Positions 6,256-52,823 of a stretch of 64,000 nucleotides of DNA are shown here, piece by piece. The notes under the pieces were generated by a model. That model had not been told where the DNA came from and ran no database searches. It was given only the letters and a program-made list of their open reading frames with translations. This DNA is from Candidatus Omnitrophota bacterium. Its GTDB lineage: Bacteria > Omnitrophota > Gorgyraeia > B26-G9. Within the stretch, counting starts at the first letter, position 1. Each line of letters opens with the position of its first letter. The stretch is from the NCBI GenBank assembly GCA_043805415.1, contig JAZDHZ010000034.1:101478-165477 (forward strand), read 5' to 3'. A program made the position numbers and the translations under genes.

Positions 6256-9200
6256 ATGTTTTTTAGAAAAAGAAATAGTTATCGCGTTAAAATCACAACT
6301 TTTATTATTTTACAGTGTTTTATAATTATAAATAGTCAAAGTATTTTTGCCCAGGAACAGCGGATTGTTTTAAGCCGCCAGCAAACAAGTACTCTTTCTC
6401 CGCACTTAAGCATCGGAATGAACTTGATTCAAGCAATTTTTTCCGAAAAAAGTCAACAGCCGATTGCCGCATCCAATCTTCCCGGAACACTGATATCATT
6501 GCGTGATACCGGAAGTATCAAAGAATTATTAAGCGGCAAAGACGTATTTTTGAATGACCTTTGGGCTAGAAAAACCTTAGGAGTACCCACGGCAATCAGT
6601 AGCCTGCGCAGTGAAGATAATAATTTTGATTTATGGGATTGGGGAAAAGGGGACATGGGTGAATCCAGCCGCCAGCATATTTTATGGTTAGCCAAGAATG
6701 GCTTTTCCCGCTGGATGCGCTTACCTAACCGGAAAACCCGGGCTTTATTCGGAGACCCCAGCCCCTATGCTTCACGCAGCGCGTTTGCCGGGGAAGATTC
6801 GGATATTGCTGTGCCGGAAGTGGAGGAATTTATTAATTCAAAACAAGCGCAGGCTTGGTATGAGCAAAATAAAAACCGGATTAAGGATTTACATAATGCG
6901 AATAGAGTAAATGGAATGGAAGTAGCGAGATTGAAAAATGAGGCTTTGTGGCTGGCAATGGAGTATTTTAAAGAAAATCATTTAAATAAAAATACTTCGC
7001 GCGGTAAAGCTTTTGATAGTTTTTTAAATGATAAAGATAATGACTGGGTAAGTGAATACGCGGAATATATGGCCATAAGCGAATATTACTGGGATACAAA
7101 AAAAGCTGTTTTTTTTGAGATAAATGAAGATATCTGGTCAAACATCGACCAAAAATTAAAAGGCCTGGTGCATGACCTGAACGTGGCCATAAGCACTGAT
7201 AAAATTAAAGATGTCGGGCGTTTATATGAAATGATTGATGATTTTTTCGCGCAGTATTACCAGAATAGTATTGTGGCAAACGAAACCGATATCTTTAGAT
7301 TGAATATTTATCAGTCATTGCTGGACAAAATAAAACAGGGAATTTTAAAAGACCTTGTGCGGGGCAATATTAAATCGCTTGTTGAGGCAGATGAACCGGA
7401 ATGCGCGAAAATACTTTTGGATGGTTATGAGCGTTCCAAACAAGCGTTTCGCTATGATATCAAAGACGCGATTGGCCAGGAATGTATGGCTGACTGGAGA
7501 AATTGGGACAATGCCGGATTGGTGGAGCGCGATCCTATTGTTTTAGCCCAATTCCGGGAAAAACTGGAAGATAAAATATTGTTTCATAAGTACGCGCAGT
7601 TTATTTTTAATGAGCAGGAAAAAAACATGAAAGAATTTGCCAACAGCAATGGCATTGCCATAGAAGGAGATATTCCTTTTTATGTGTCAACCATAAGCTG
7701 TGAAACCTGGGTGTATAAAGATAAGATATTCCGGCTTGATCCGAAAAACCGCTATCAGCAGATGGCTGACAGCGGAGCGCCGCCAGACCAGTATGACCGC
7801 GAATACGGACAAAACTGGGGCGGGACTCCTTATTATATAAATGCGGCGTTTAAGCAATTTTTCTATAAACGCACAAAACATGAATTAAAGAACGCGGATG
7901 GTATCAGGATTGATCACTTCCGGGCGCTTAATGATTTCTGGGTAATTCCTCATGGCAAGCTTGGCCGGGACGGTAAGTTTGAAGATGGGCCAAAAGATGA
8001 ATTATTGCAGCCTTTGCTTAATCTGGCATTGGGACAGTTTAAACGTTTTTTTGCCGAAGATCTGGGCTCATATCTGGAAGGAGTCTGGGATCTGATGCGG
8101 GATAATGAAGTTAAGGGCTTTCGGGTAGCGATATTCGGCCATGGTGATGATGATGACATAGTTCATCGGCAATATTCCGGGCAGATTGCTTTTTCCGGCA
8201 CGCATGATACTCAGACCTGGTTTGGCGCTTGGAATCAATGGGATAGTGTTAAACGGAGAATATTCCTGGACAGGTTTACGCATGATGATATTCCGGAGAT
8301 TTGGCAGCGCTTAACATCTGAACAGAGAAAAGGGTTTTTAAAATACCTTAATTATTTAGTAAAGCAGTTAAAAGCAGATACAGCAAACATAAACAAACAT
8401 AGCGAGTTTCAATCTGAAAGCAAAGATTTTTTCACAGAGAATAATTTTAAAACGCAGTTGAAAAAAGTCCGCGTTATTACAAGGAGTTTGGTTGATCTTG
8501 AAGAATTGCCATTTGGCGTGCAAACCGCTGTTTTCGGAATCCTGGCTTTTTCCGAAGCAGATACAGTATTTCTGCCGATGCAGGATATATTCCGGCAGGG
8601 TGAAGAGTTTCGGATAAATGTTCCGGGCAGGCCCGGAGATTGGGGCTACCGCCATCCTTATACCGGACAGGAATTGAATAAAGCAATAAATGAAGAAATA
8701 AAAAAAGCTGATGAATTAATGCGGCTGCTGGCGCAAACTTCCGGCCGGGATGTTAGCGTGCCTTTGTACAAAAAAGGCCAAGGCGTGCATATTCTGGGTG
8801 TTTCTCCGGGTGTTAATGCCAAGAAGATGTGCAAACCAGGCGAGGAGTTTATTATCTGGGCGGCAGTACAGGGTGATAAACCAGCTAAGGTTAATCTGCT
8901 GACAAATATGCCTGAGCATAATGGCGCGTATCCTAAAGAACAGGCAGTGGCCATGGAATTAGTAAAAGAATTAAAGAGCGGAACCTATCTTTATGGAGTA
9001 AGAATAAGAGCAACACAGCCAGGCAAATGGGGAGTCGCGGTTGAGGCGGATAATGTAAGAGCCGGAGAGGTTAAGGAGAATACCAGTCTGGTTGTAAGCG
9101 CTTTGGATAAAATAGCGCCTTTGGCTAAAGAACAAGAAGCTGTGCTGCGGATCGCGGCCGGGATTTCCAAGGAAAAACTGCAAAGGATTTTAAATGAGTT

Positions 9201-11184
9201 GAATCCTGATTTGGCGCAGGCCCTGCGGCAGGCATTAAAAAATTATCAGGTAGAATATGCCGGTAATGATGAGGAAAAAATCATTAATCCCAGCGGACTG
9301 GATAAAGATTTATTATATGCGAATGTGAATTTAATCCGCGAAAAATTACTTAACCTTGATTACCAACAGTTAATCAAGGAAAATTATCCTGCTTTGAATA
9401 ATAAACTTATTGCTGAGTATATGAACAGGTCGGGATGGTATTCCGCGGCAGTGCCAAATAAAATAGCGCAGACTTTGCTTAATATCGCGGTTTTACCTGG
9501 AAATCCAGAGTCTGTTATGGAAAGTCTTACCACTATTCTTGGCCACGACAACACTATTAGCGGGGAAAAGCGGGTATTATTAGATCAGGCGTTTGCCAAT
9601 GCCGCCGCGATTGCTCATGACTCGGTATTTAGAAAAGGAGATTTGTTTGTCTTAAACAAGTTTAATGATCCTGAAGCTAATCAGAAGGTGCTGTCTTTTG
9701 CCCGGTATATGGGAAATGGCAGAAAGGCGATGGTAATCAGTAATTTCAATGACTCGCGCATTAACGGAACCCTTTTGCTCAATCAGCATAATTTTGACAA
9801 AATATTTAATATCTCCAGCACTCCAGGCAGTTATTATGCTTTGATTGACAGGGTAAGCGGAGAAATATACCTGCGTGAAGGAAAAGATTTGATCGCGCAT
9901 GGTTTGTATTTTGATCTTCCGGCTCAGTCCACGCATGTTTTTATGGTTCAGAGTTTACAGGATAATACAGCCAATGTTTTGCGGTCTAAATGTAATTATT
10001 ATAATGGCAAATCTCTGCCGCTGGAAGAAATTCTTTCGCTATTAAATAATTTTGGGCTGACTTTGGATTTTCCCTGTGTGGGAAAAACAGCGCGGGCTTT
10101 TGTTCTCCAGGGTCTTTTAAACAATGTTCCGGCAAATCAATTGATCCAGGCTTTTAAAAACAATCCGGAAATCAAGATAATCGAATTTGGGTTAAACCCG
10201 GCGGAAATCGCCGCTGAGATTAGCAAATTAGCGCAAGAGTATCAAGCTGATAAGCAAGTTCAGGCTTTATGCCAGGGCCTGCGGTTTTTAAATCAAAGAG
10301 GAGCATTAAATGAAATAAATCTTGTCCTGGTTTTAAATCAGGACAAAACATCAGTTGAGGCTGTTCAGTATTTTGATCATGGTTCAAAAAGCAGGAAAAG
10401 TTATTTGTATGTTAATTTGTCGCGGCTGAATCTGGATTCAAATAATAATTCTGAAACTAAACTTTCCGCCGCGTTAATAATCGGCGCGCGGATATCACGC
10501 CAAGGGTCGATCGCGGATTATGAATTAAGCCGAACCCTTAAAGCATTTTTAGCGCTTTGGGCGCGAGACGACGCGACTTTGCCAGGGTTAATCGACAGTG
10601 AACACAAAAGGATAAAAGGCATGTTGGAATATCTTGAAACAAATCTTAATTCAGTAATAGATGAATGGAAGCTGCCGTTTCATTATAACCTGGGACATGA
10701 TACGCTGTTAAGCCACTCTTTAAGGCGCGTAGTCATGGATTTGTTTTTAAAACAAAATACTGATAATCAAGTCAGTTTAGCCACTGTGCATAATTTTGCT
10801 TATTTCTTGGCGTATTATTTGGCTGATTCCGGACAGGCAGATAAGCTTCGCGATATTTTGCTTCAAGGATTTTCTGGAAAAAAAGCATCTTTTTATGAAC
10901 AATATTTTCTTACCAGCTTTATCTCCGGAGCACTGGTTTTAAGGGACAGCAGCATAGACGCGATTTTTATTGATTTACTGGAAAATCCTTTGCCGCAAAC
11001 GGATCTTGCCTTGCGGGAAAAAATTATAAAAACAATGTGCGGTCTAAACCGTTTTGATTTAAAATTAAACAAAATCTCAGTCAAAGAGTTGGGGGCGGTT
11101 CTCCAATCCGGCAAAGCTATTGAATCACTTCCTGAGGCAACAGTCGCGATCAGGCAGTATCAGGCGATTGGACAGGCGATTTAA
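6256..11184 (+). CDS. malQ: Giant (1642 aa) secreted protein: complete GH77 4-alpha-glucanotransferase (amylomaltase) domain fused to a ~800-aa C-terminal extension of unknown function; member of the N-terminal-leader giant family
   Basis: GH77 signatures in order: IEGDIPFYVSTISCETWV (amylomaltase GDLPIYVA), SGAPPDQYDREYGQNWGGTPYY, DGIRIDHFRALNDFW (GGFRIDHFRGF), SGTHDTQTWFGAW (TGTHDNDT), PMQDIF...RINVPGRPGDWGYR (PMQD...MNIPGT). Leader MFFRKRNSYRVKITTFIILQCFIIINSQSIFAQ then STLSPHLSI. AGGAG RBS. Confidence 0.8.
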   Translation: MFFRKRNSYRVKITTFIILQCFIIINSQSIFAQEQRIVLSRQQTSTLSPHLSIGMNLIQAIFSEKSQQPIAASNLPGTLISLRDTGSIKELLSGKDVFLNDLWARKTLGVPTAISSLRSEDNNFDLWDWGKGDMGESSRQHILWLAKNGFSRWMRLPNRKTRALFGDPSPYASRSAFAGEDSDIAVPEVEEFINSKQAQAWYEQNKNRIKDLHNANRVNGMEVARLKNEALWLAMEYFKENHLNKNTSRGKAFDSFLNDKDNDWVSEYAEYMAISEYYWDTKKAVFFEINEDIWSNIDQKLKGLVHDLNVAISTDKIKDVGRLYEMIDDFFAQYYQNSIVANETDIFRLNIYQSLLDKIKQGILKDLVRGNIKSLVEADEPECAKILLDGYERSKQAFRYDIKDAIGQECMADWRNWDNAGLVERDPIVLAQFREKLEDKILFHKYAQFIFNEQEKNMKEFANSNGIAIEGDIPFYVSTISCETWVYKDKIFRLDPKNRYQQMADSGAPPDQYDREYGQNWGGTPYYINAAFKQFFYKRTKHELKNADGIRIDHFRALNDFWVIPHGKLGRDGKFEDGPKDELLQPLLNLALGQFKRFFAEDLGSYLEGVWDLMRDNEVKGFRVAIFGHGDDDDIVHRQYSGQIAFSGTHDTQTWFGAWNQWDSVKRRIFLDRFTHDDIPEIWQRLTSEQRKGFLKYLNYLVKQLKADTANINKHSEFQSESKDFFTENNFKTQLKKVRVITRSLVDLEELPFGVQTAVFGILAFSEADTVFLPMQDIFRQGEEFRINVPGRPGDWGYRHPYTGQELNKAINEEIKKADELMRLLAQTSGRDVSVPLYKKGQGVHILGVSPGVNAKKMCKPGEEFIIWAAVQGDKPAKVNLLTNMPEHNGAYPKEQAVAMELVKELKSGTYLYGVRIRATQPGKWGVAVEADNVRAGEVKENTSLVVSALDKIAPLAKEQEAVLRIAAGISKEKLQRILNELNPDLAQALRQALKNYQVEYAGNDEEKIINPSGLDKDLLYANVNLIREKLLNLDYQQLIKENYPALNNKLIAEYMNRSGWYSAAVPNKIAQTLLNIAVLPGNPESVMESLTTILGHDNTISGEKRVLLDQAFANAAAIAHDSVFRKGDLFVLNKFNDPEANQKVLSFARYMGNGRKAMVISNFNDSRINGTLLLNQHNFDKIFNISSTPGSYYALIDRVSGEIYLREGKDLIAHGLYFDLPAQSTHVFMVQSLQDNTANVLRSKCNYYNGKSLPLEEILSLLNNFGLTLDFPCVGKTARAFVLQGLLNNVPANQLIQAFKNNPEIKIIEFGLNPAEIAAEISKLAQEYQADKQVQALCQGLRFLNQRGALNEINLVLVLNQDKTSVEAVQYFDHGSKSRKSYLYVNLSRLNLDSNNNSETKLSAALIIGARISRQGSIADYELSRTLKAFLALWARDDATLPGLIDSEHKRIKGMLEYLETNLNSVIDEWKLPFHYNLGHDTLLSHSLRRVVMDLFLKQNTDNQVSLATVHNFAYFLAYYLADSGQADKLRDILLQGFSGKKASFYEQYFLTSFISGALVLRDSSIDAIFIDLLENPLPQTDLALREKIIKTMCGLNRFDLKLNKISVKELGAVLQSGKAIESLPEATVAIRQYQAIGQAI

Positions 11185-11185
11185 T

Positions 11186-14100
11186 ATGTCAGGAATTTTT
11201 AAAACTAAAATTTTAAATAGATTTCTCTGTCTGGTTATTTTGCAGATATTTCTTGTTTCCAATTTTTCCTGGGCCGCGGATGATTTGCGCGCGAATGATT
11301 TAGTTTATTCCAGCGCAACGCTTTCTCCTTCGCTTCAAATCAGCGCTGATGCGCTAAAACAATATTTTGCCCAATCCTTTGATTTAAAAACCGCGGCAAA
11401 TATAGATCCGGTTATAAAAGATATTTGCTTAGAGCTGTATAAGGCCAAGGATAAAACCACAAAAATAGAAGTTCTGGCCCTTGAGCAAGGCTATAGAGTA
11501 AAGATCAGGACTCAGAGCAATACGCCGCTTGTTTTACATTGGGGGTTTAATAATTGGCAAAAGCCTTTTAAGGAAATCTGGCCCCAGGCAGAGAATATCC
11601 GCACTTATTTTGATGAGCAGACCAAAGCAATGCGGACCATAGTCGAGGCTTCAGCTGAGGGAGATTATGTTTTTAATATTGATATCCCCTGGGAATTAGT
11701 TTCAGGAATAAACAATATTGATTTCACCTTCTTTTGCCCAGAAACCAAAGAATATAAGAAAGCAATTGAAAATAAGGATTATGTTGTGCCGGTTTCTAAT
11801 GTCTTGAACCTGGCCTTGGCGCGCTTGGCTGAAAATGCCGGGGCAGATGATCCTGAAAAAAAGCACGATCTGCTTAATTTGATAAACAAAAGGCTGGCTG
11901 CGGCCAAAGATTCAGCGGAAATAGATGAAAACAATATTCCTTTGTTTTATGACGCGCATGAAAATATTATTACCCAGATTGTGAAAAACAAAGCAGGAAT
12001 CAGAATTGATTTCTGGGTTGTAAGTAATGAGCCGCTGGTTTTACATTGGGGAATAAATGATTGGCAGTTGCCGCCAAAAAGCATTTGGCCGGACCGGACA
12101 TTATATAAAACCCGGGCTTATGAAAAAAAAGCAGTGCAAACTCAGATGCATTTGGCTTCTAAAGACGGTTTGTACCAGACCTCGATTTACATCCCTAACC
12201 AGAATTTAAAAGAAGTTAAAAACATCAAGTACAATGTACATTATCCAAATAATGGGTATTGGGATAATAATAATGAAGAGGATTATAGTTTATCGCTGCA
12301 AGCCCAGGATCTTATAGCCGCTTTGCTGCCTTACGCGACAGGCAGATTCGCTGCCCACATAAACGCCAAACAAGCTCGCGGCTTGTTAAAGAACATGGCG
12401 TTTTTCTACGCTGAGAATATGAATTACACTGATTTGTTAAAGCTTTTTCAGGGGATGGAAGGCATTGCCCCTGGGGATGATCTTGAAAAAAAAGATGTTT
12501 TGGGATTAATCCTTATTGCCAAATTAATGAACGAAGGCGCGGTTTGGGATAGTGACAAAGCTAAGATTATTATCAGTAAACAAAAGATCAGCGCCGCGAT
12601 AGCGGAGTTGATTGATAAACTTGACCCCTTAAGTGTGCAGTGGGCATTATATATATTCGGACTGCTTGACCCTTCCTGGGTCTCAATCCTTACGCATCAG
12701 CTTGATTATAAGCAGATATACCAGGATGTGCAAAACAGCAAGATCAAAGACCTGCCGAAATTTATCCAAGGGATAATCAACAGTTATGATGATTTGGAAG
12801 GAGCGCCGCAGGTTCTTTCCGCTGAGAGTATTGATGAAACCTGCCTGATCATAAAATTGAAATTCAATGATCAGATCATCAGTACAAAATGGGGCTATCC
12901 GACAAAACAGCAAAAGTATTATTATCAAAATGGGATTTTTGAACTAAGAGATTTCGGGGGAAATGAATTTTCGCCGGTAGGCCGTAAGCTTTCGCGTTAT
13001 GTGGATAAAGAAGTGATAAAAACCCAGATCTCCAGGCTGCGTGGCAAAGGCAAAAAGGCGATTGTTGACGGAATTTCCTGGCAGTCTCCGGAAGCGCTTA
13101 ATTCGGATAATTATATGTATTATCATCATAGTCTGCTGGAAAAAGACGCGGATGTCAGGAATTTATTGCTTTCCCGTGGTTCTTCCACGATCTTAGAACT
13201 TCCGGACGGGAAAAAAGCCTGGGTATTTCATCGGCCTGATTCATCAGATCAGCTTTCGCCTAATCTTAAATTCGGAACAAAGGCAGCGGAATACTGGAGA
13301 AATTATTGGCTGGAGTATTATAAATATTTTATCAATGAATTTGACGTGGATGGATTCAGGGTGGATTTACCCGGAGAGTTGAATCATCATGGAGATTATT
13401 CGGTATTTAAGAGTGTTTGTTTTGATATAGTGCGGTACGCGGCGGCAAAAGGCAAAAAAATATATTTTATTTTAGAAACATATCATGGGTACGCGAATAT
13501 CTGGGGCTGGGATGAGTTTTCCGCGTTAAATCATGATCCGCAGATAGCGCAATACGGCTATAAACCTTTCCGCTGTTATTATAAGCCGGTAATGACCAGT
13601 ATTTACCGCGGCAGCGCGTTTGATCTAAGAGCTGCTTTTGAACGCATAGCCGGCAGTGTTCAGGAATTGGTTATTTCAATTACTAATTTTGACGAGAAAA
13701 AAGCCGAGGATATTATTCCTGAAAAACAAAGGCTTAAGCGTTATATGGAGCTTTTGTATAATTTTGCCCGCGCGGGATTTGATGTAATGATTTATTTACG
13801 GGATTTAGGTCTGGGCGATATTTTGCCGATGTGCGGCGGAGATCGGGTTCTCTGGGGCGGAAAGCTGAGGGTTGTGGCGCATAAGCCGGCTACTCCGCGT
13901 CAGTTTCGGCAGAGATTGGAGCAAAGCACAGGCGATTTGCTTGAACAATCTCCTTTATATCAGGCGTTTAAAAAATCGCCGCAAAGCCCCTTATCGCGGC
14001 TGTTCTTCCGCGGCAATAAGTTAGTTTTTTATCAGCCGGGAAAAACTCCGGAAGTGTTTGATCTGGATAAGATGGCTAAGCCTGCTCCACCGGTAAAAGT

Positions 14101-15142
14101 TATGGACAGTGAGGAGGATATAAATATTTGGCTGCAGCAGCAGGTTTATTCATTAACAAATAATGAGCCGCAAACCCAAGCCTTAAGAGAAATTGAAAAT
14201 ACTTTAAAACGATTTAAGCATAGTGCAAGTGCAATGGCGGGAAAAGCTGTTTTGGCTCTGGTCTGTTCTGAGACTAAGAATTTCGCGGTTTGGGATCAGG
14301 CAAAAGGCCAAACTCAATGCCTGCGCATGCCGGTAAATAAAGTATTGGCCATAAAAAATGACCATGCTTTTGTTGTGGATATTAAACAAGCTGGCAAAAG
14401 CGAATCCCGCAGAATCCCGGCGCTGCAAATCAAGCAAAGCGGCAAATATTTGGCAATGGTTTTTGGCTTGGCTCCGGGTAAATACAGGTTTAATTTTTTG
14501 TGGCAGGAAAAACATGAAAACCAGGGCTGGGAAGAAGGCAATGGCTATGAGCTTGAAGTCAGTTCTCCGAAGACCGGGCAACCAGAGCTGGCGGTCTATA
14601 TCCCGCGTTTATCCGCTGAATATTTAAGGGATTGGGATGAAATGTTTTATCAGGCAAAAGATGCTGGCCGCAATCTGCTGACCGGAGATATGCTTACAAA
14701 GGGAATGCTTGAAAATATAGAATCCTCGATTGATTTTACCCTGCGTTATGAGTATGGCCGGGAGATTTTAGAACAAATTAAAGACAAAAAGAAAAAGCAG
14801 GTTTTCAATATTTTATATAATCAAATTTCGCAAAACCCGCGAGGCCGATACAGTTTACTGCATCATCACCATGAAAAAGATTTTTTTAAATTAGCGGAAA
14901 CTGTGCTTGAGAGTATCCCGGGTTTAGCAAGACCAGAGGCAGCCCCAATATGGCAATATTTGGACGCGCTCAAACAAGCGGATAATCCTGACCAAGGAGA
15001 ACAAAGCCAAATAGCCGTAAATATAAAACTGCTTGGTTTTATGTCTGGTTTGTTCGCGCAGATCGAAGCCCTGTCCGCGGCTAAACCCCTTGAGCTTTGG
15101 CTTAATATTGAAGCGGAGTTTTTGATTGGACAGGCAATATAG
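11186..15142 (+). CDS. Giant (~1319 aa) secreted alpha-glucan-active protein: two CBM25-like starch-binding modules plus a GH13-like catalytic signature; N-terminal-leader giant family
   Basis: ATG 1 nt after the upstream TAA (coupled). Leader MSGIFKTKILNRFLCLVILQIFLVSNFSWA then ATLSPSLQI. Repeated LVLHWGFNNWQKP / LVLHWGINDWQLPP (CBM25-type HWGxNxW). DVDGFRVDLPGE (GH13 region II GFRxD), ILETYHG (region III Glu) and ALNHDPQ (region IV NHD). The GH13 assignment is tentative. Confidence 0.6.
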   Translation: MSGIFKTKILNRFLCLVILQIFLVSNFSWAADDLRANDLVYSSATLSPSLQISADALKQYFAQSFDLKTAANIDPVIKDICLELYKAKDKTTKIEVLALEQGYRVKIRTQSNTPLVLHWGFNNWQKPFKEIWPQAENIRTYFDEQTKAMRTIVEASAEGDYVFNIDIPWELVSGINNIDFTFFCPETKEYKKAIENKDYVVPVSNVLNLALARLAENAGADDPEKKHDLLNLINKRLAAAKDSAEIDENNIPLFYDAHENIITQIVKNKAGIRIDFWVVSNEPLVLHWGINDWQLPPKSIWPDRTLYKTRAYEKKAVQTQMHLASKDGLYQTSIYIPNQNLKEVKNIKYNVHYPNNGYWDNNNEEDYSLSLQAQDLIAALLPYATGRFAAHINAKQARGLLKNMAFFYAENMNYTDLLKLFQGMEGIAPGDDLEKKDVLGLILIAKLMNEGAVWDSDKAKIIISKQKISAAIAELIDKLDPLSVQWALYIFGLLDPSWVSILTHQLDYKQIYQDVQNSKIKDLPKFIQGIINSYDDLEGAPQVLSAESIDETCLIIKLKFNDQIISTKWGYPTKQQKYYYQNGIFELRDFGGNEFSPVGRKLSRYVDKEVIKTQISRLRGKGKKAIVDGISWQSPEALNSDNYMYYHHSLLEKDADVRNLLLSRGSSTILELPDGKKAWVFHRPDSSDQLSPNLKFGTKAAEYWRNYWLEYYKYFINEFDVDGFRVDLPGELNHHGDYSVFKSVCFDIVRYAAAKGKKIYFILETYHGYANIWGWDEFSALNHDPQIAQYGYKPFRCYYKPVMTSIYRGSAFDLRAAFERIAGSVQELVISITNFDEKKAEDIIPEKQRLKRYMELLYNFARAGFDVMIYLRDLGLGDILPMCGGDRVLWGGKLRVVAHKPATPRQFRQRLEQSTGDLLEQSPLYQAFKKSPQSPLSRLFFRGNKLVFYQPGKTPEVFDLDKMAKPAPPVKVMDSEEDINIWLQQQVYSLTNNEPQTQALREIENTLKRFKHSASAMAGKAVLALVCSETKNFAVWDQAKGQTQCLRMPVNKVLAIKNDHAFVVDIKQAGKSESRRIPALQIKQSGKYLAMVFGLAPGKYRFNFLWQEKHENQGWEEGNGYELEVSSPKTGQPELAVYIPRLSAEYLRDWDEMFYQAKDAGRNLLTGDMLTKGMLENIESSIDFTLRYEYGREILEQIKDKKKKQVFNILYNQISQNPRGRYSLLHHHHEKDFFKLAETVLESIPGLARPEAAPIWQYLDALKQADNPDQGEQSQIAVNIKLLGFMSGLFAQIEALSAAKPLELWLNIEAEFLIGQAI

Positions 15143-16038: not shown

Positions 16039-17487
16039 ATGAAGAAAATTCTGGTTTTATTAAGCTTTTGTTTATTGGTTAATCTGAACGCGAATGCGAT
16101 TGCTTTGGCTGGCGAAGAGACAAGCACGGCTTTAGATCAAAAACAAGTGGCGATTACGATTTACAATAATAACCTGGGCTTAGTTAAAGATGTGCGGGAG
16201 ATTAAATTAAGTTCCGGCGTGCATGATCTGAAATTCATGGATGTGGCCAGTCAAATCAGGCCGGTGACAGTGAATATAAAATCATTATCCGCGCCGGATA
16301 AACTCTCTGTGCTTGAGCAGAATTATGAATATGATCTATTGAACGCGCAAAAACTTTTGGATAAATATGTGGGCAAACAGGTAAAACTATTGGATAAAAA
16401 TTATTATACCGGTAAAGAAGAAATAGTAACCGCCGAGCTTTTAAGTAATAATGGTTCGCCAATATACAAAATTAATAATGAGATCCAGGTTAATCCTTTG
16501 GGCCGGATAATTCTCCCGGAGATTCCGGATAACTTAATTGCCAAGCCCACGCTGATCTGGATGTTGAAAAACAGCAATCCCAAGCAGCAGGATATTGAAG
16601 CCTCGTATTTGACTAATGGGATTAACTGGAAGGCTGACTATATCGCGGTGATTAATCAGGATAATACAATCGCGGATTTAAGCGGCTGGGTTACGATTGA
16701 GAATAATAGCGGAGCAACATATAAAAATGCTCAGATAAAACTGGTTGCCGGAGATGTAAACCGGGTGCAGGAAGATCGGGGTTATGCTGGCCGGGCAAAG
16801 GCAAGCAGGATGATGGAACAAGACGCGGTGAAAAGCTTTGCCGAAGAAGCGTTTTTCGAATATCATTTATATACATTGCAAAGACAATCGACAATTAAAG
16901 ATAATCAAACCAAGCAGCTCGAATTATTAAAAGCAATGGATATTCCGATCAATGAAAAATTGATTTATTATGGAGCGGATTATTATTTCCGCAACCAGTA
17001 TACCGGACAGGCGCAGTCAAAGGAAAAAATCGGGGTGTTTTTGGAAATTGAAAATAAGCAGAAAAATAATTTAGGCATGCCGCTTCCGGCCGGAGTTATC
17101 CGCGCTTATAAAAAAGATAAAGAAGGCAGTCTGCAATTTATCGGAGAAGATAAAATCGATCATACTCCTAAAGATGAGAAAATCACAATTAAAATGGGCG
17201 ATGCTTTTGATGTAGTTGGAGAAAGAAAACAGCTGGAGTATCGGATTCTTTCAAAAAACGCCGCGCAGCGTTTTGATACAGAGCAGCAATGGCAGATCAA
17301 GCTGCGCAATCACAAGGAAAAACCAGTGGAAGTGGAAGTTGTTGAGCCGATTCCCGGAGACTGGCAAATAGTTAATGCTTCGGAAAAATATATTAAAACC
17401 GAAGCCAATACCATTAAATTTGTGGTAAAATTAAATAAAGATGAAGAAAAAACAATTGATTATCAAGTAAAAATCAGATACTGGTAA
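16039..17487 (+). CDS. Secreted DUF4139/DUF4140-family protein (TIGR02231-like)
   Basis: Signal peptide. N-terminal VAITIYNNNLGLVKDVREIKLSSGVHDLKF resembles the DUF4140 start (VTVY..GA.V.R). AAGGAGG RBS. Confidence 0.45.
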   Translation: MKKILVLLSFCLLVNLNANAIALAGEETSTALDQKQVAITIYNNNLGLVKDVREIKLSSGVHDLKFMDVASQIRPVTVNIKSLSAPDKLSVLEQNYEYDLLNAQKLLDKYVGKQVKLLDKNYYTGKEEIVTAELLSNNGSPIYKINNEIQVNPLGRIILPEIPDNLIAKPTLIWMLKNSNPKQQDIEASYLTNGINWKADYIAVINQDNTIADLSGWVTIENNSGATYKNAQIKLVAGDVNRVQEDRGYAGRAKASRMMEQDAVKSFAEEAFFEYHLYTLQRQSTIKDNQTKQLELLKAMDIPINEKLIYYGADYYFRNQYTGQAQSKEKIGVFLEIENKQKNNLGMPLPAGVIRAYKKDKEGSLQFIGEDKIDHTPKDEKITIKMGDAFDVVGERKQLEYRILSKNAAQRFDTEQQWQIKLRNHKEKPVEVEVVEPIPGDWQIVNASEKYIKTEANTIKFVVKLNKDEEKTIDYQVKIRYW

Positions 17488-17668: not shown

Positions 17669-20600
17669 ATGTATTTTAAAAAGCTCGAACTCTTTGGATT
17701 TAAATCTTTCGTTGATAAAACAACTCTTATTTTTGAACCAGGCGTAACCGCGATTGTTGGCCCCAATGGTACAGGAAAAAGTAATATTTCTGACGCGATT
17801 AAATGGGTATTGGGAGAACAAAGTGCCAAGTCTATGCGTGGGGCAAAGATGGAAGATGTTATTTTTAATGGCACAGAAACCCGCCCTCCGGTAAATATGT
17901 CAGAAGTTTCGCTGACGCTTTCTAATGAAGAAAGAGTTTTGGCGATTGATTATGATGAAGTAACTGTAACCAGAAGGCTTTATCGCTCAGGAGAAAGTGA
18001 GTATCTTCTTAATAAAACCCCGGTTAGGTTAAGAGATATAAATGAACTATTAATGGGCACTGGCATAGGCACGGAATCGTATTCTTTGCTCGAGCAGGGC
18101 CGGATTGACGCGATTATTAGTTCCAAGCCGGAAGAACGCAGAGTGGTGTTTGAAGAAGCCAGCGGCATTACCAGATATAAGAAACAAAAAAATGAGGCAA
18201 TGCGCAAGCTGCAGGCAACAGAAGAAAACCTTTTACGGGTTAATGATATAATTGTAGAGGTTAATCGTCAGTTAAATTCCATAGCGCGTCAGGTAAGTAA
18301 AGCGCGCCGCTTTCAGGAAAATTTTGATGAACTTAAAACATTAGATACGCAGTATACATACCTTCAATATAAACAGCTTAAGGAAAAAAATGATTTACTT
18401 GCCAGTGAAGAGACTGCTTTTCATGCTGAGCAGGCGGGATTAGAAAAAGAGCTTGCTGTTTTTTCTGAAGAGTTTGACGCCTTAAAAGTAACCCTTTCTG
18501 AAGTGGAACATAATTACAGTCACTTGAACAATCAATTTGTCAGGACTACTTCGCAGATTGAGCAGAATGTTCACGCTGTGTCCATTAATAATGAACGCAT
18601 CCAGGAATTCAGCCAAAGAGTGCGGGATTATAACCGCGATCTGGAAAACTCCCAAAAGAAAATCAAAGAACTGCAGGAGCAGATAAACCAACTGCAAATC
18701 CGGATTTCCGCTTTTTCCGACGAGAAAAGCGCGAAAGAACTTAATTTAAATTTACGCCAGACAACAATCGCGGAAATTGAAAACCAAATAAAACTCGCGC
18801 AAAAATCCGGAGAAGAAAACCGGATCGTGGCGGTAAAATTACTCAGTGAACACGCGCAGATTAAAAATGAACTGGCCAAGCTTTCGGCGAATATCAGCAA
18901 TGCTAACGCGCGCTTATTGCGGCTTAATCAGGAAAAAGCGAAAACTAATCAGGAACGCGAGAAGATTGACGCGGAATTAAAAAGCAAAATAGCGGAAGTT
19001 GAAAATTTAAGAGGTAAGGTTAATAAAGAAGAAGGCGACGCTCAGAATCTTAAAAATAATTATGAAGAGCTTAATACTCAGATAAAAGAGCTGGAAGTAA
19101 ATATCCAAGACAGCAAGCAAGCTTTAGTCGGCTGTAAATCCCAGCTGGAAATGCTGGAAAGATTGAGCAAGGAATACGAATGGTTTTCCAGCTCAGTGAA
19201 ATCATTTATGCTCCAAAAAGAAAACTATCCCGAAGCTTTTGCCGGAGTCCATGATGTACTGGTAAATCTTATGGAGGTAAAGCCGGGATATGAAGTTTGC
19301 GTGGAAACCGCGCTAGCCGAATACTTGCAGGCCGTTGTTGTTGATAGCCGACAAGTGGCTTTAAGGCTGAGAGAATTTCTTAATCAGCATAATATCGGCA
19401 GAATTCGGTTTATTACTCTGGATTCAATTCCGCAAATAGCTAATCAGCAGTCTCAGATTGAAAATACAAAGAATTTTTTAGAAGTAATTACCTGCGATGA
19501 TAAATACGCGAAAGTTTTAGCGTTTCTGGTTAAGAACACTTTTATTTTACAAGAAAATATTTTTGACAATCCGTCAAATCCTTTGACTAATATCAAAGAT
19601 ACGCTGAGTGCTGAGCCAGATGCTTCTGGCTTGCTTGAAGCTGAGCTTTTGTTTTCTTTTAAAACAAACGCGGCCAATAGCGTTAAAATAGTCGGCGATT
19701 TTAATCGATGGAATGCTTCTTTTGACAGTGATCTGGAACGCAAAGACACGGAGCTTTGGCAAAAGGTTCTAAAGCTCGCGCCAGGACGCTATACTTATAA
19801 GCTGGTGGTTGATGGCCAATGGATCATTGACCCGAACAATCCGCTTAAAGAAATAGATGTAAACGGACATGAAAACTCAGTTATCGAAGTGCTGGCAAAA
19901 TCCCAGGATGCTTTGGTTGCTGAGGCTGATAAGCCGGCGGCATTTGATTTTAATTTTCTGGAAACGCTGGTGAGTATGAGCGGCGAGCTGCATTCAACCG
20001 CGGGATTAATCAGCCGGCCGGTTGCTGACCAGACAACAGGCCTGTTTTATCAAAAAGCAAAAATAAGGCAGCTTAAGCAGGAAAGTGTCGGCCTGGAACA
20101 AGCCGTAGTTAAATATAAACAAGAAATCGACACTAAAATCCAGCAGCTTAAGTTTGTGGAAACAGAATTTACTCAATTAAATGATGCTTTGCACGAAGAA
20201 AAGATTAGTCTGGCGAATCGGGACTCGGAAAAATCCAGTATTGAAATAAACCGGAAAAAACTTGTGGATGAGCTTTTAGTCATTGATCTGGAAATTGATG
20301 AAACAACTCTTGATGTTCAGGAGTTTGAAGAAAAAGAAGCGGCTAAGAGAGCTAGGCTGAGCATTGTGGATCAGGAAATAGTCGGCAATGAACAGACAAT
20401 GGCAAGTAATCATCAATTGATCGGGATAAAAAACAAGGAGCGGGAAGAGCTTTTAGTTATTATCGCGGAAATGAAAACAGAATTTTCTTTGCTCAATGAA
20501 CAGGAAGAATCTTTAAATCAGAGTTTTTCAATGCTGTATAATACGCTCAAAGAATTAACCCTGAACTCGGAAGAATTTGTCCGGTATAAGGATGAGAGTA

Positions 20601-21625
20601 TAAAGCGGATCGAGGCGCTGACGATTCAGGTAAGTGAACTGAATAAATCCACGCTTGTCCTTGAGCAGGAAAAAGAAGAAATCGGCATGTCTTTAGAAGA
20701 ATTTAAAGAAAAACGCGGTCAATTATTAAGTAAATTTGAAGATATCCAGAATAAAATAAAAGAAAAAGAAAACCGATTAAATTATACCAAGAATCGGATT
20801 CGCGATATTGATGTTAAAAAAGTCGAGATGAATTTTAAAACCGAGTCATTGGTAAATTCAGCGAGGCAGGCTTATAAAATCGAACTGGAAACCCTGGAAC
20901 TTGAATTGCCGGAAGATATAGACTGGCAGGCGCGGAAAGAACAGATCGATGGTTTAAAAAATAAGATTGACCGGATTGGGGCAGTTAATCTGGCGGCAGT
21001 AGAAGAAGAGGAAGAATTAAGACAGCGCGCTGACTTTCTTAATAGTCAAAGCGAGGATTTGTTCGCGGCTAAGCAGACATTAATGCAGGCAATCCAAAAA
21101 ATCAACCGCACAACTAAAGCGCTTTTTCTCGAGACTTTTGAGAAATCAAAAATCGCTTTTAAAGAGTATTTCAAGCTTTTATTCAGCGGCGGCGACGCGC
21201 AGCTTCTGCTTACCGAGGGAAAAGATGTTTTAGAATGCGGGGTGGAAATCGTGGTGCGGCCTCCAGGCAAAAGACTGCAAAGCATAACCCTGCTTTCCGG
21301 AGGCGAGAAAACGCTTACGGCAATTGCCTTATTGTTCGCGATTTTTAAGATTAAGCCAACACCGTTTTGCGTATTAGATGAAATGGATGCCCCCTTAGAC
21401 GAATCGAATATTGATCGGTTCACCCGGGTTTTACAGGAATTTTTGAAAAGCTCACAATTCATAATTATTACCCATAATAAAAAGACTATTTCCATGGCGG
21501 ATGTTATGTATGGGGTAACAATGGAGCAGCCGGGTATTTCTCGGCTGGTGAGTGTGAAATTCAGCGAATTTAAAGACTCGGATAAATTAAAACAAGAGCT
21601 TATTCCTGAAGAAGCTATAATCTAG
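17669..21625 (+). CDS. smc: Chromosome partition protein SMC carrying an inserted AMPK-beta/CBM48-type carbohydrate-binding module after the hinge
   Basis: N-terminal head MYFKKLELFGFKSFVDKTTLIFEPGVTAIVGPNGTGKSNISDAIKWVLGEQS (Walker A). Long coiled coils. Hinge near VHDVLVNLMEVKPGYEVCVETALAEYLQAVVVDS. C-terminal signature LLSGGEKTLTAIALLFAIFKIKPTPFCVLDEMDAPLD (ABC signature plus Walker B). At 1318 aa it is about 120 aa longer than typical, owing to the insert at roughly 19650-19890. Confidence 0.9.
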   Translation: MYFKKLELFGFKSFVDKTTLIFEPGVTAIVGPNGTGKSNISDAIKWVLGEQSAKSMRGAKMEDVIFNGTETRPPVNMSEVSLTLSNEERVLAIDYDEVTVTRRLYRSGESEYLLNKTPVRLRDINELLMGTGIGTESYSLLEQGRIDAIISSKPEERRVVFEEASGITRYKKQKNEAMRKLQATEENLLRVNDIIVEVNRQLNSIARQVSKARRFQENFDELKTLDTQYTYLQYKQLKEKNDLLASEETAFHAEQAGLEKELAVFSEEFDALKVTLSEVEHNYSHLNNQFVRTTSQIEQNVHAVSINNERIQEFSQRVRDYNRDLENSQKKIKELQEQINQLQIRISAFSDEKSAKELNLNLRQTTIAEIENQIKLAQKSGEENRIVAVKLLSEHAQIKNELAKLSANISNANARLLRLNQEKAKTNQEREKIDAELKSKIAEVENLRGKVNKEEGDAQNLKNNYEELNTQIKELEVNIQDSKQALVGCKSQLEMLERLSKEYEWFSSSVKSFMLQKENYPEAFAGVHDVLVNLMEVKPGYEVCVETALAEYLQAVVVDSRQVALRLREFLNQHNIGRIRFITLDSIPQIANQQSQIENTKNFLEVITCDDKYAKVLAFLVKNTFILQENIFDNPSNPLTNIKDTLSAEPDASGLLEAELLFSFKTNAANSVKIVGDFNRWNASFDSDLERKDTELWQKVLKLAPGRYTYKLVVDGQWIIDPNNPLKEIDVNGHENSVIEVLAKSQDALVAEADKPAAFDFNFLETLVSMSGELHSTAGLISRPVADQTTGLFYQKAKIRQLKQESVGLEQAVVKYKQEIDTKIQQLKFVETEFTQLNDALHEEKISLANRDSEKSSIEINRKKLVDELLVIDLEIDETTLDVQEFEEKEAAKRARLSIVDQEIVGNEQTMASNHQLIGIKNKEREELLVIIAEMKTEFSLLNEQEESLNQSFSMLYNTLKELTLNSEEFVRYKDESIKRIEALTIQVSELNKSTLVLEQEKEEIGMSLEEFKEKRGQLLSKFEDIQNKIKEKENRLNYTKNRIRDIDVKKVEMNFKTESLVNSARQAYKIELETLELELPEDIDWQARKEQIDGLKNKIDRIGAVNLAAVEEEEELRQRADFLNSQSEDLFAAKQTLMQAIQKINRTTKALFLETFEKSKIAFKEYFKLLFSGGDAQLLLTEGKDVLECGVEIVVRPPGKRLQSITLLSGGEKTLTAIALLFAIFKIKPTPFCVLDEMDAPLDESNIDRFTRVLQEFLKSSQFIIITHNKKTISMADVMYGVTMEQPGISRLVSVKFSEFKDSDKLKQELIPEEAII

Positions 21626-21657: not shown

Positions 21658-22851
21658 TCAGATAAATTCTGTGCTGAACATGCACACCCGATTTCTTCCG
21701 GTTTCTTTAGCTACATACAGAGCCTTATCAGCAAAAGCAATTAAATCATCTTTGTTCGAGGCATCCTGGGGAAAACTGGCGACTCCGATACTGATCGTGA
21801 TTCTTTTGGAAGGTTGTCCCTCTTTATAATGGCAAGGGTGAGCGGCAGTTAATTTTCTTATTCGCTCAGCAGAGGAATAAGCTTTTTCTTTAAATGTTTC
21901 CGGCAGAATAATCGCGAATTCCTCTCCGCCATAGCGGGCGACCAGATCAACTTCCCGGCAGGTGGACTGGAGAATTTCCGAGATTTCCTGCAATAATTTA
22001 TCTCCGGCCAAATGCCCCAGGCTATCATTAAATTTCTTAAAATGATCGATATCGATCATTAATAAGCTGACATGGCGGTTAAACCGGTTTGCTCTTTTAA
22101 CTTCTTCCGCTAATTGGTGCTGAAAATATCCATAGTTCCAAAGACTTGTCAGGCGGTCGGTGTTGGATAAGATAAGGGTTTTTTCAAATTCCTGAGAGTT
22201 GCCGATTGCCAGTCCGGCATTATTGGCAAACATAGTCAGTTTCCAGATATCATCTTTGGTAAGATCTCTTTTGGAATAGAAATTATCAACCAGCATTACT
22301 CCGAGAACCCGGTTTTTTGCCATTAAAGGAATCGTCAGACCGTATTCCATATTAAATAAGGAGATGATCGGGTCGTTTTTTTAAATTTGTTTTTTATACG
22401 TAGGGGTTATTATCTCAAACTGTTTTTTCTGAAGCACTGTTTGGGCTAAAATTCCCGAACTTGGATTAATCGGCAGCTTGATATTTTTAACATTATTATT
22501 AAAATGCGAATCCTGTTTGCGGCCGAATTCTTTATAATCTTTTAACAGCTCCTCAAGAGTTTTATGCGTGTTTTCAATAAACTCCCAAATATTTTTCGCG
22601 TCAGCTTCTGAATCAGGGCCAATACCCATCCGGCCTTCCAGGATATTTTCTTTCTCATTAACCAGAAAAACCATAGCCCGGTTAAACCCCAGGCCTTCGC
22701 CGGAAGTAACACTGGTAAGAATAATGTATAAAATTTCATCCAGCCTGAGAGTCGAGCTCATGGCCATGCTGATTTCATAAAGCATCAGCAGTTCGGCGTG
22801 ATATTTATCTTGTAGGTTTTTCGGTGTTTCTTCGATTGACATAGCCTTCAT
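21658..22851 (-). pseudogene. GAF-GGDEF diguanylate cyclase gene interrupted by one in-frame TAA (plus-strand TTA at 22381-22383) inside the GAF domain
   Basis: The two minus-strand ORFs (22381-22851 and 21658-22350) are in the same frame (723 nt apart, divisible by 3). Read through the TAA, the protein is ...PTYKKQI*KNDPIISLFNMEYGLTIPLMAKNRVLGVML..., one continuous GAF domain followed by an intact GGDEF domain (RYGGEEFAIILPET; DIDHFKKFNDSLGHLAGDKLL). Confidence 0.65.
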
Positions 22852-32560: not shown

Positions 32561-32602
32561 ATATTCTCTAGGGCAATATGATTGGGTAAATGGAACAAGA
32601 TA

Positions 32603-51737: not shown

Positions 51738-52823
51738 ATGATTAAATTAAAAATAAAATTTAGCATATTGCTTTTAGCTTTATGCCTTGTGTTTATCATC
51801 GGCTCTAAGGTTAACGCGGCGGATAACACTCCTTTTGGTGTCGGCACATTCCTTTCTTGGAACCATGAGTGGAATAATTATATGTACAATAATGAAGAGG
51901 AAGTAGATAAGGCTGTAGCGATCCTAAAAAAGCTCGGAGTTTCCATTATTAGAAATGAATTCTCTTGGAATGAAATAGAATCAAATCAAGGGGTTTTTAA
52001 CTTTGAGCGATATGATTATATTGTAAAGGTCTGCCAGGAGAAGGACATTGAAATATTAGCTATATTAGGATTTTCAGCTCCATGGACAGGAAAACAGTGG
52101 AATGATGCTCCGACCGATGAAACAGCATTCCTGAATTATGTGAAGGTTGTTGTGCGACGCTATAAAAATTCAATAAAATATTGGGAATTTTGGAATGAGC
52201 CGGATACAAACCTATACTGGAATCCGCAGGACAAAATGAAAACATATACACAAATGCTAAAGAAAGTGTATAAAACTATTAAAGAAATTGATCCCTCCGC
52301 CGTAGTTGTTTTAGGTGGATTAGCAAACAGTCCCTATTTTTCCTTAAAGAATGTATTGAAAAATGACGGGGCTGACTACTTTGACATTGTTAATATCCAT
52401 CCCTATGTAAGCCCGAATAATGGCGAGGGGATAAAGCAGGTGAGATCTTTACTGAATAGTATAGATAAGGAACTAGTTAAACGTAATCTTAATAAAAAGA
52501 TCTGGATAACCGAAATAGCATGTCCTGGCATAGACCAATCCAGCGCAAGCAAATGGTGGCTTGGTGAATCTCAAAATGAGCAGCAACAAGCTCAATTTTT
52601 AAATGAAGTCTATTCTTTAATAGATACGCATAAAAATGTAGAAAAAATATTTTGGTCAATGTTTCGGGATACAGATCATTTTAAGGATGGGGTTGATTAT
52701 TTTGGATTGCTGTCTTGGGATTATGGCCCCAAGACAGCATATTTTGCCTATAAGCAGCTGATTGATGATGCTTATAAAAAAAGTGAAACAGGTCTTACCC
52801 CGAATAATAAAATATATAAATAG
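51738..52823 (+). CDS. Secreted glycoside hydrolase, clan GH-A (GH5-like)
   Basis: Signal peptide. WEFWNEPD (NEP acid/base) and KIWITEIACPG (TE nucleophile) at the spacing typical of GH5/GH39-type TIM barrels. Confidence 0.55.
   Translation: MIKLKIKFSILLLALCLVFIIGSKVNAADNTPFGVGTFLSWNHEWNNYMYNNEEEVDKAVAILKKLGVSIIRNEFSWNEIESNQGVFNFERYDYIVKVCQEKDIEILAILGFSAPWTGKQWNDAPTDETAFLNYVKVVVRRYKNSIKYWEFWNEPDTNLYWNPQDKMKTYTQMLKKVYKTIKEIDPSAVVVLGGLANSPYFSLKNVLKNDGADYFDIVNIHPYVSPNNGEGIKQVRSLLNSIDKELVKRNLNKKIWITEIACPGIDQSSASKWWLGESQNEQQQAQFLNEVYSLIDTHKNVEKIFWSMFRDTDHFKDGVDYFGLLSWDYGPKTAYFAYKQLIDDAYKKSETGLTPNNKIYK

Follow-up and report, generated by a model that had tools for sequence, protein, structure and literature searches.

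The hinge of known SMC complexes serves in dimerisation and in the handling of DNA; its tip lies roughly 50 nm from the DNA-clamping heads, and we know of no SMC hinge that carries an accessory ligand-binding domain. Use of the nucleoid is known for polyhydroxybutyrate (PHB), polyphosphate, and carboxysomes; the placement and inheritance of bacterial glycogen granules is largely unexplored. The present analysis concerns an smc gene on a stretch of 64,000 nucleotides of a Candidatus Omnitrophota bacterium (GenBank assembly GCA_043805415.1, contig JAZDHZ010000034.1, positions 101,478 to 165,477 of the forward strand; hereafter, the window), the product of which carries, within its hinge, a carbohydrate-binding module (CBM) of the CBM48 type. 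The arrangement suggests that, in this Omnitrophota lineage, the glycogen store is physically linked to the chromosome.

Described systems resemble this protein in parts. The closest counterpart of the module is the CBM of AMPK beta (1Z0M, 2F15, 4YEF), which is alike in fold (root-mean-square deviation (rmsd) of 1.5 Å, about 30% identity) and in its glycogen-binding residues. There, the host is a kinase scaffold, whereas here it is a chromosome ATPase with an internal insertion on two linkers; in addition, the bacterial modules form a subfamily of their own, with an extra tryptophan (W697). The closest counterpart of the host is the bacterial Smc of Smc-ScpAB, represented by the hinge structures 1GXL and 1GXJ (Thermotoga maritima) and 5H69 (G. 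stearothermophilus), with which the window SMC shares the head motifs, the length (once the insert is subtracted), and the hinge fold, while it shares its chromosomal slot with Omnitrophota SMCs. It differs by ~135 extra residues (two linkers plus CBM48) in the C-terminal half of the hinge and by the replacement, in the entire module clade, of the GG(S) hinge motif by S-K/R-P. Another long coiled-coil protein with a CBM48 is the plant protein PTST, which docks on the alpha-glucan granule (PMC4339375); PTST is, however, a plastid scaffold with neither an ATPase nor a link to DNA, and this fusion is evolutionarily unrelated to SMC-CBM48. Functional analogies are provided by PhaM of Ralstonia eutropha, through which PHB granules are attached to the nucleoid (PMC3556143), and by the polyphosphate granules of Caulobacter with their chromosome-coupled inheritance (PMC3806658), although in both cases the polymer and the proteins differ and there is no sequence kinship. 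In the literature searched, which omits most subscription journals, neither an SMC with a carbohydrate-binding module nor a nucleoid tether for glycogen was found to be described. Module-bearing SMC sequences are already public, with automatic Pfam matches.

By its sequence, the window protein is a full-length bacterial SMC that is predicted to be functional; an earlier note, made from the letters of this DNA, had already described it as an otherwise canonical SMC. Indeed, the 1318-residue protein scored 960.2 bits against TIGR02168 (SMC_prok_B, NCBIfam; cutoff of 567.35), in two matched stretches with a break at residue 628, and matched the Pfam families SMC_N (PF02463; residues 3-1291) and SMC_hinge (PF06470; residues 525-627; 84 bits). 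The split ABC-type head is complete, as the motifs GPNGTGKSN, LEQGRID (Q-loop), LSGGEK, VLDEMDAPLD (Walker B and D-loop), and ITHN (H-loop) are all present and conserved across the clade. The product of the open reading frame (ORF) 17669-21625 is identical (100%) to NCBI protein MFH1062768.1 (P0001 in our numbering), which stems from a Candidatus Omnitrophota metagenome-assembled genome (MAG) and is named 'AAA family ATPase'. At NCBI, this name is given to most module-bearing SMCs, and 'chromosome segregation protein SMC' to those without the insert; the former are therefore easily missed in annotation-based SMC surveys. With 1318 residues versus about 1180-1210 for Omnitrophota SMCs without the insert, the protein shows the excess length of ~120 residues that the earlier note had given. 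Its parts are the following (positions in the window, strand, description):

17669..21625, + strand: smc gene, 1318 residues; a single continuous ORF with TIGR02168, SMC_N, and SMC_hinge matches
17669..18163, + strand: N-terminal ATPase head, residues 1-165, with Walker A GPNGTGKSN and Q-loop; 90% mean pairwise identity in the clade
19169..19549, + strand: N-terminal part of the hinge, residues 501-627, ending in the strand LVKNTFIL; PF06470 model positions 2-106 of 116; predicted local distance difference test (pLDDT) score of 94-98
19550..19648, + strand: linker 1, residues 628-660, unconserved and predicted to be flexible; pairwise identity of 0.14, 8-36 residues in orthologues, pLDDT of 50-67
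19649..19894, + strand: CBM48/AMPK1_CBM beta-sandwich, residues 661-742; PF16561 match, predicted sugar contacts W681, K711, W718, G733, and N736
19895..19957, + strand: linker 2, residues 743-763, unconserved; identity of 0.11, 14-26 residues in orthologues, pLDDT of 56-76
19958..20068, + strand: C-terminal part of the hinge, residues 764-800, with the last beta-hairpin TLVSMSGELHSTAGLISRP and the re-entry to the coiled coil; placed by alignments, 1gxl residues 166-210
21029..21568, + strand: C-terminal ATPase head, residues 1121-1300, with LSGGEK, VLDEMD, D-loop, and ITHN; 84% mean pairwise identity

A first line of evidence concerns the identity of the module, which the earlier note had placed at positions 19650-19890 and had read as an AMPK-beta/CBM48-type glycogen-binding module; both the place and the family were borne out. 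The peptide on which it relied (FSFKTN...NSVIEV) corresponds to residues 662-741 of the protein, i.e. to nucleotides 19652-19891. On the whole protein, PF16561 (AMPK1_CBM) matched residues 667-744 (E = 3.4e-13; 50.0 bits, with a gathering cutoff of 26.8), and on the excised insert it did so with E = 1.1e-14. PF02922 (CBM_48; cutoff of 22.4) reached 25.7 bits on the excised insert, thus above its gathering cutoff, but 21.1 bits on the whole protein. A six-frame scan with a hidden Markov model (HMM) of the SMC-borne modules retrieved exactly one copy in the 64-kb window, at nucleotides 19646-19897 (120.9 bits). Among PDB sequences, phmmer retrieved AMPK CBMs with E-values of 2e-6 to 5e-6, including those of beta2 (2f15; E = 2e-6) and beta1 (1z0m; E = 3.6e-6), and in these alignments the FNxW and VDGQW.DP cores lined up as the note had described; weaker matches of the module were a GH13 pullulanase and the starch phosphatases SEX4 and LSF1. 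Similarly, a Foldseek search with the module part of a predicted structure returned the glycogen-binding domain of AMPK beta1 (1z0m_C; target template modelling (TM) score of 0.90, rmsd of 1.5 Å, 31% identity) and the cyclodextrin complex 4yef (target TM score of 0.84-0.90). According to profile and predicted fold, the module is thus a CBM48/AMPK-beta-type beta-sandwich (E-set).

A second line of evidence concerns the predicted ligand site. In the 22 full-length module-bearing SMCs, W681, K711, G733, and N736 were present without exception, and W718 was present in 21 of them. The alignment equates W681, K711, W718, G733, and N736 with W100, K126, W133, G147, and N150 of AMPK beta1, respectively, the last of which we take to be a carbohydrate contact in the AMPK CBM-cyclodextrin structure. 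In the AMPK CBM, glycogen binding is lost in the mutants W100G and K126Q and weakened in W133L and G147R (PMC6274970). The positions conserved in SMC modules are those of the general consensus of 493 modules from non-SMC proteins, whether free or in tandem, except for D677 and E728; also the extra conserved tryptophan (W697) occurs in 88% of the free modules. The alignment hence gives no sign of remodelling of the binding surface in the SMC module. Furthermore, mean pairwise identity amounted to 0.84-0.90 for the ATPase heads, 0.52-0.54 for the coiled coils, 0.47-0.51 for the hinge, 0.47 for the CBM48 module, and 0.11-0.14 for the linkers, and ten module columns, ligand residues included, were invariant. 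The module is thus conserved like the hinge while the linkers decayed, a pattern that is expected of a folded domain on free tethers and that supports selection acting on the module.

These data bear on an alternative that had been offered alongside glycan binding in the earlier note, namely that of a repurposed E-set domain. In that case, the module would no longer bind sugar in vivo and would offer proteins or DNA a contact surface on the hinge, for instance to a loader, a partition factor, or some other protein of the nucleoid. CBM48/E-set folds serve protein interaction in some contexts, one example being the AMPK CBM, which packs on the kinase domain as well. Such a role would agree with D677 and E728, which are conserved solely in SMC-borne modules, and with the lack of conserved glycogen genes at the SMC locus. 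However, the main residues of the sugar contact vary little or not at all, whereas solvent-exposed aromatic residues without such a role would normally drift, and the consensus is indistinguishable from that of modules carried by GH13 enzymes or found in glycogen clusters. With both the sugar-contact residues and the consensus of the family kept, glycan binding is the better supported of the two functions, also in view of the relatives in glycogen clusters described below, and a repurposed domain seems improbable.

A third line of evidence concerns the placement of the module. The earlier note had it immediately after the hinge, which has to be corrected, as it lies inside. In an alignment of 40 Omnitrophota SMCs, the insert begins directly after the strand LVKNTFIL (residues ~620-627) and stops before the hairpin TLVSMSGELHS / TLVSMSGELHSTAGLISRP (from residue 764). 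When compared with the Thermotoga maritima chain 1gxl, the N-terminal part of the hinge corresponds to residues 10-124 and the hairpin TLVSMSGELHSTAGLISRP to residues 166-185 (RIATLDGELISGRGAITGG), which puts the module in the hinge's C-terminal half, ahead of the last beta-hairpin. The site of insertion corresponds to a loop or helix at the surface that differs from one SMC to another. Linker 2 holds a short predicted helix (residues 746-753, QDALVAEA), which may be a remnant of the canonical hinge helix ('dA..Ll'), as MAFFT places the canonical 'DA..LL' helix there. The hinge and its insert were modelled with AlphaFold2 (residues 480-830; alignment of 52 sequences), which gave a mean pLDDT of 90, with values of 94-98 for the hinge and 95-98 for the module, and long helices flanking the hinge. 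Foldseek split this model cleanly into a module part and a hinge part, the latter matching the SMC hinges 5h69 and 1gxl (target TM score of 0.73-0.74).

The hinge itself is unusual in one motif. The C-terminal GG motif of the hinge is implicated in hinge dimerisation of the Bacillus subtilis Smc. All members of the 28-member clade to which the window SMC belongs (P0001-P0028), with or without the module, read I-S-K/R-P at the canonical GG(S) glycines (columns of residues 764-800), while G772 of the preceding strand is kept; the canonical relative P0030 is likewise without the hinge GG. This altered motif, occurring throughout the clade, might be taken to favour a role in metabolic sensing, whereby occupancy of the module by glycogen or maltodextrin would alter the hinge (its opening, its DNA contacts, or the turnover of the SMC) and so tune compaction or segregation to the carbon reserves. 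The ligand-site evidence is equal for sensing and for tethering, and the module directly precedes the hairpin that contributes to the dimer interface of the hinge, so that a bulky ligand could influence the hinge; a precedent exists in AMPK, which is inhibited by glycogen via its CBM (PMC6274970). Yet, the S-K/R-P motif is also present in the insert-less clade members and is thus not coupled to the module. In addition, the linkers are long, unconserved, and variable in length (8-36 and 14-26 residues), a loose tether that is ill-suited to allosteric signals, and no conserved module-hinge contact residues occur beyond the family consensus, D677 and E728 being the only SMC-specific ones. Sensing is therefore considered unlikely.

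The module is not confined to the window. Among the best 120 SMC homologues, 23 clusters, with SMC identities down to 48%, carried it, and these stemmed from NCBI, JGI, ENA, and Logan assemblies; the insertion site was identical in all of them. By contrast with this, the 80 SMC loci listed from other phyla, which served as a negative control, contained no CBM48-like segment in their SMC. Also, GC content and GC content at third codon positions (GC3) of the insert matched those of the remainder of the smc gene. An assembly chimera or a chance similarity, which is an a priori concern for any MAG-derived sequence and for which no indication was found, is refuted by the recurrence of the in-frame insertion at one and the same site in 23 clusters of independent assemblies, by the continuous ORF, by the gene-matching composition, by E-values of 1e-13 to 1e-39, and by the confidently predicted fold; it can practically be dismissed.

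Concerning the history of the module, a neighbour-joining tree of SMCs (insert columns removed, 1168 columns, 100 bootstraps) placed all module SMCs in a single clade of 28 sequences with 100% bootstrap support. The deepest branches of this clade (P0026, P0022 plus P0028, and P0025) bear the module, and five insert-less members are nested within it. Of these, P0018 is the sister of the group of P0008 and P0010-P0014 (100% support), inside a module-bearing clade with 91% support, and it keeps EG--NSQIEQ where its sisters read EGIENSVIEV; the nesting of the insert-less P0020, P0021, and P0024 and of P0023 is weakly supported. On the simplest history that can be read from these sequences, the module was gained once, in an ancient event, and was later lost in P0018, which is well supported, and probably on at least two other occasions. 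A recent horizontal insertion was rejected, as the insert has the composition of its host gene and the module dates back to the ancestor of the clade. The losses raise another alternative, that of a tolerated passenger, a domain that entered a permissive loop of the hinge and persists there doing little or nothing. Indeed, one loss at least is well supported and others are probable, which indicates that the SMC works without the module, and the insertion site is a loop or helix that is variable among SMCs. Nevertheless, the module was kept while the SMCs diverged to as little as 48% identity, its own identity (0.47) equals that of the hinge against 0.11-0.14 for the flanking linkers, and its ten invariant columns include the ligand residues, which makes a mere passenger very unlikely.

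The chromosomal neighbourhood was compared with that of six other loci, two of them module-bearing (L001 and L002), two from insert-less clade members (L003 and L004), and two from canonical Omnitrophota SMCs with ~41-43% identity (L085 and L086; L086 begins at a contig end, so that only its downstream side is informative). The smc gene was followed by an opposite-strand GAF-GGDEF gene in all six and was preceded by acyl-CoA dehydrogenase, ETFbeta, and ETFalpha genes, sometimes with a DUF4139 gene thereafter, in all five loci with upstream sequence. The genes rpmF-plsX-fabD-fabG-acpP-fabF were found farther upstream in several of these loci. The window retains the DUF4139, SMC, GGDEF, peptidase_MA, and HemN portion of this conserved order, including two synteny markers:

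16039..17487, + strand: DUF4139 protein (Pfam) with a signal-peptide-like N-terminus; same position in L002 and L003, a synteny marker only
21658..22851, - strand: GAF-GGDEF diguanylate cyclase (Pfam GGDEF), split in two ORFs; a synteny marker

As this slot is shared with ordinary Omnitrophota SMCs, the module-bearing protein appears to be the organism's own chromosomal Smc. A paralogue or a defence-type SMC was rejected, based on this positional orthology and on the equivalog score of TIGR02168. As a separate observation on the SMCs of this phylum, one of 1756 residues (P0085, Candidatus Omnitrophica) showed intein-type Pfam matches (PF14528 and PF14890); it probably carries an intein, which would be another large insertion tolerated in an SMC of Omnitrophota.

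A further line of evidence comes from the relatives of the module. An exhaustive HMMER search retrieved 6895 representative proteins at E ≤ 1e-3, of which the top ranks were taken by tandem arrays of 2-17 copies. Some of these arrays (P0123 and P0129) are fused to GH13 alpha-amylase catalytic domains, and they are more distant from the SMC module. Ranked per domain by score against the SMC-module HMM, the nearest relatives were stand-alone single-module proteins of 92-130 residues (up to 102.6 bits), and ParA/MinD-type ATPases with a C-terminal CBM48, all eight of which were in the top 45 of 750 domains (88-98 bits); the SMC modules themselves scored 88-129 bits against their own HMM. The full-length fusions have an intact deviant Walker A motif (NQKGGCGKTT). 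The ParA-CBM48 proteins and their loci are the following:

P0317, P0323, P0327, P0331, P0333, P0340, P0343, and P0347: ParA-CBM48 fusion proteins; module with 44-49% identity
L087, 8001-9029: ParA-CBM48 gene
L088, 8001-8966: ParA-CBM48 gene
L090, 348-1454, - strand: ParA-CBM48 gene
L091, 3362-4420: ParA-CBM48 gene

Contig L090 carries a compact glycogen cluster. It contains, in this order, genes for a GT4/TreT-like transferase, the ParA-CBM48 protein, a 219-residue unannotated protein, a GH57 protein, a GH77 protein, a two-component system, a stand-alone CBM48 protein, a GlgA-type synthase, a DUF4912 protein, a GH57 branching enzyme, another GH57 protein, and a GalT-like protein. The stand-alone CBM48 protein has no signal peptide and is identical to an NCBI protein of Candidatus Omnitrophica, and the GC content of the contig (0.40) matches that of the window. 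Similarly, in L088, the ParA-CBM48 gene lies two genes upstream of a gene for a GH57 branching enzyme, whereas the neighbours in L087 and L091-L093 are less telling. The occurrence of both a stand-alone CBM48 protein and ParA-CBM48 in a glycogen cluster ties the module subfamily, by gene context, to cytoplasmic glycogen.

The ParA-CBM48 proteins hence provide an independent pointer to a theme of glycogen and nucleoid. They carry the same module subfamily as the SMC on ATPases that typically act on the nucleoid, with at least one Omnitrophota member in a glycogen cluster, and they differ from it in the position of the module (C-terminal versus internal), in the ATPase family, and in the presumed mechanism (ParA-type cargo positioning versus SMC). 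The module subfamily has thus been joined to two different ATPase families acting on the nucleoid, and the ParA-CBM48 fusions may constitute a glycogen-granule positioning system. No paper on ParA-linked glycogen positioning was found in the searched literature, from which most subscription journals are absent. It was also seen that small unannotated genes adjoin ParA-CBM48 in L090 (product of 219 residues) and L088 (products of 259 and 181 residues); these could encode partner factors.

The explanation that is favoured here, with slightly less than even confidence, is that glycogen particles are anchored to the SMC on the chromosome, the organism's own Smc, by the modules at its hinge tip. 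The ancestor of one Omnitrophota lineage would have gained a single CBM48 inside its Smc hinge, and most descendants would have kept it. A dimer of this SMC would then expose a pair of sugar-binding modules at the tip of its hinge. At this site, far from the DNA-clamping heads, they would be able to take hold of multivalent glycogen particles without getting in the way of DNA handling. The particles bound may consist of cytoplasmic glycogen or of another alpha-1,4/1,6-glucan, and such granules would be tethered to the chromosome-bound SMC, with the payoff that the carbon store would be kept beside the nucleoid and be shared out to the daughter cells at division. A tether of this kind would parallel PhaM for PHB granules and would complement the ParA-CBM48 ATPases of the same phylum. 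A ligand is likely to be available, since glycogen synthesis genes are reported across Omnitrophota MAGs (PMC8542988). A wider proposition, that glycogen is a nucleoid-organised cargo in Omnitrophota, with one CBM48 adaptor placed on two unrelated chromosome-acting ATPase families (at the SMC hinge tip and on ParA), is possible but rather doubtful.

Several points weigh against the tethering of glycogen by the SMC. Firstly, we infer glycan binding by the SMC module from residue conservation and from analogy, and the equivalents of L146 and T148, which contribute to binding in AMPK, vary among the SMC modules. Secondly, the predicted TM score of 0.66, beside the high pLDDT values, suggests that the arrangement of module and hinge in the model is not fixed. 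Thirdly, the module is dispensable, since the tree strongly supports one loss at least and makes two to three probable. Fourthly, no glgA, glgB, or glgC gene was found in the 64-kb window. Lastly, the alpha-glucan genes that do occur there, to which the earlier note had drawn attention, encode proteins that look exported, with signal-peptide-like N-termini (ORF 6256-11184, 1642 residues, and ORF 11120-15142, 1340 residues), and none of the six other loci has them in the conserved neighbourhood of smc. They are inserted upstream of the block of an unannotated gene, DUF4139, and SMC, where related loci have fab/ETF genes. Of the two annotations given in the note, GH77 was confirmed and CBM25 was not. 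In the 1642-residue protein, a GH77 4-alpha-glucanotransferase (amylomaltase) domain was found, restricted to the middle of the protein (residues ~400-800). For the 1340-residue protein, there was no CBM25 match at E ≤ 1e-3, and no sequence relative in the PDB; instead, two modules like the Ig-like N-terminal domain of glucan-water dikinase (PF23166) were present. Given the export-like starts and the absence from the SMC neighbourhood, these genes tell little about the role of a module in a cytoplasmic SMC, and they were rejected as an explanation of the module, as they are not conserved neighbours, look exported, and lack a confirmed CBM25.

If the wider proposition of a nucleoid-organised glycogen cargo holds true, this would be the first chromosome-coupled system for the positioning or inheritance of glycogen as well as the first SMC with a built-in cargo-binding domain for a cargo other than DNA. 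A conserved sugar-binding module in the hinge provides a concrete, testable link of chromosome organisation and carbon storage, and a module-bearing SMC would surprise SMC specialists and offer a biochemical entry to the spatial organisation of bacterial glycogen. The module is small and easily expressed, so that glycan binding and point mutants are approachable without culturing the organism. Moreover, the natural insertion site marks a place where the SMC hinge accepts a folded domain, which may be useful for tagging.

Some further features of the window were recorded. Most of the 1642-residue and 1340-residue proteins is without annotation. Other glycoside hydrolases are encoded as well, namely GH116 beta-glucosidase-like (43626-45791), GH-cc/GH10-like (51738-52823), and GH26-like (1926-2903) proteins, so that the region is rich in carbohydrate-active genes in general and not in alpha-glucan genes specifically. 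ORF 32582-41542 encodes a protein of 2986 residues, for which only a cNMP-binding domain and weak GGDEF and UPF0489 matches were found; giant genes are a reported trait of Omnitrophota (bioRxiv 10.1101/2023.11.21.568195). Finally, the diguanylate cyclase downstream of smc, which is a single gene encoding 338-397 residues in the six other loci, is split in the window into ORFs 21658-22350 and 22381-22851 (both on the - strand; 230 and 156 residues, respectively, ~30 nucleotides apart). A stop or frameshift, a pseudogene, or a sequencing error could account for this split.

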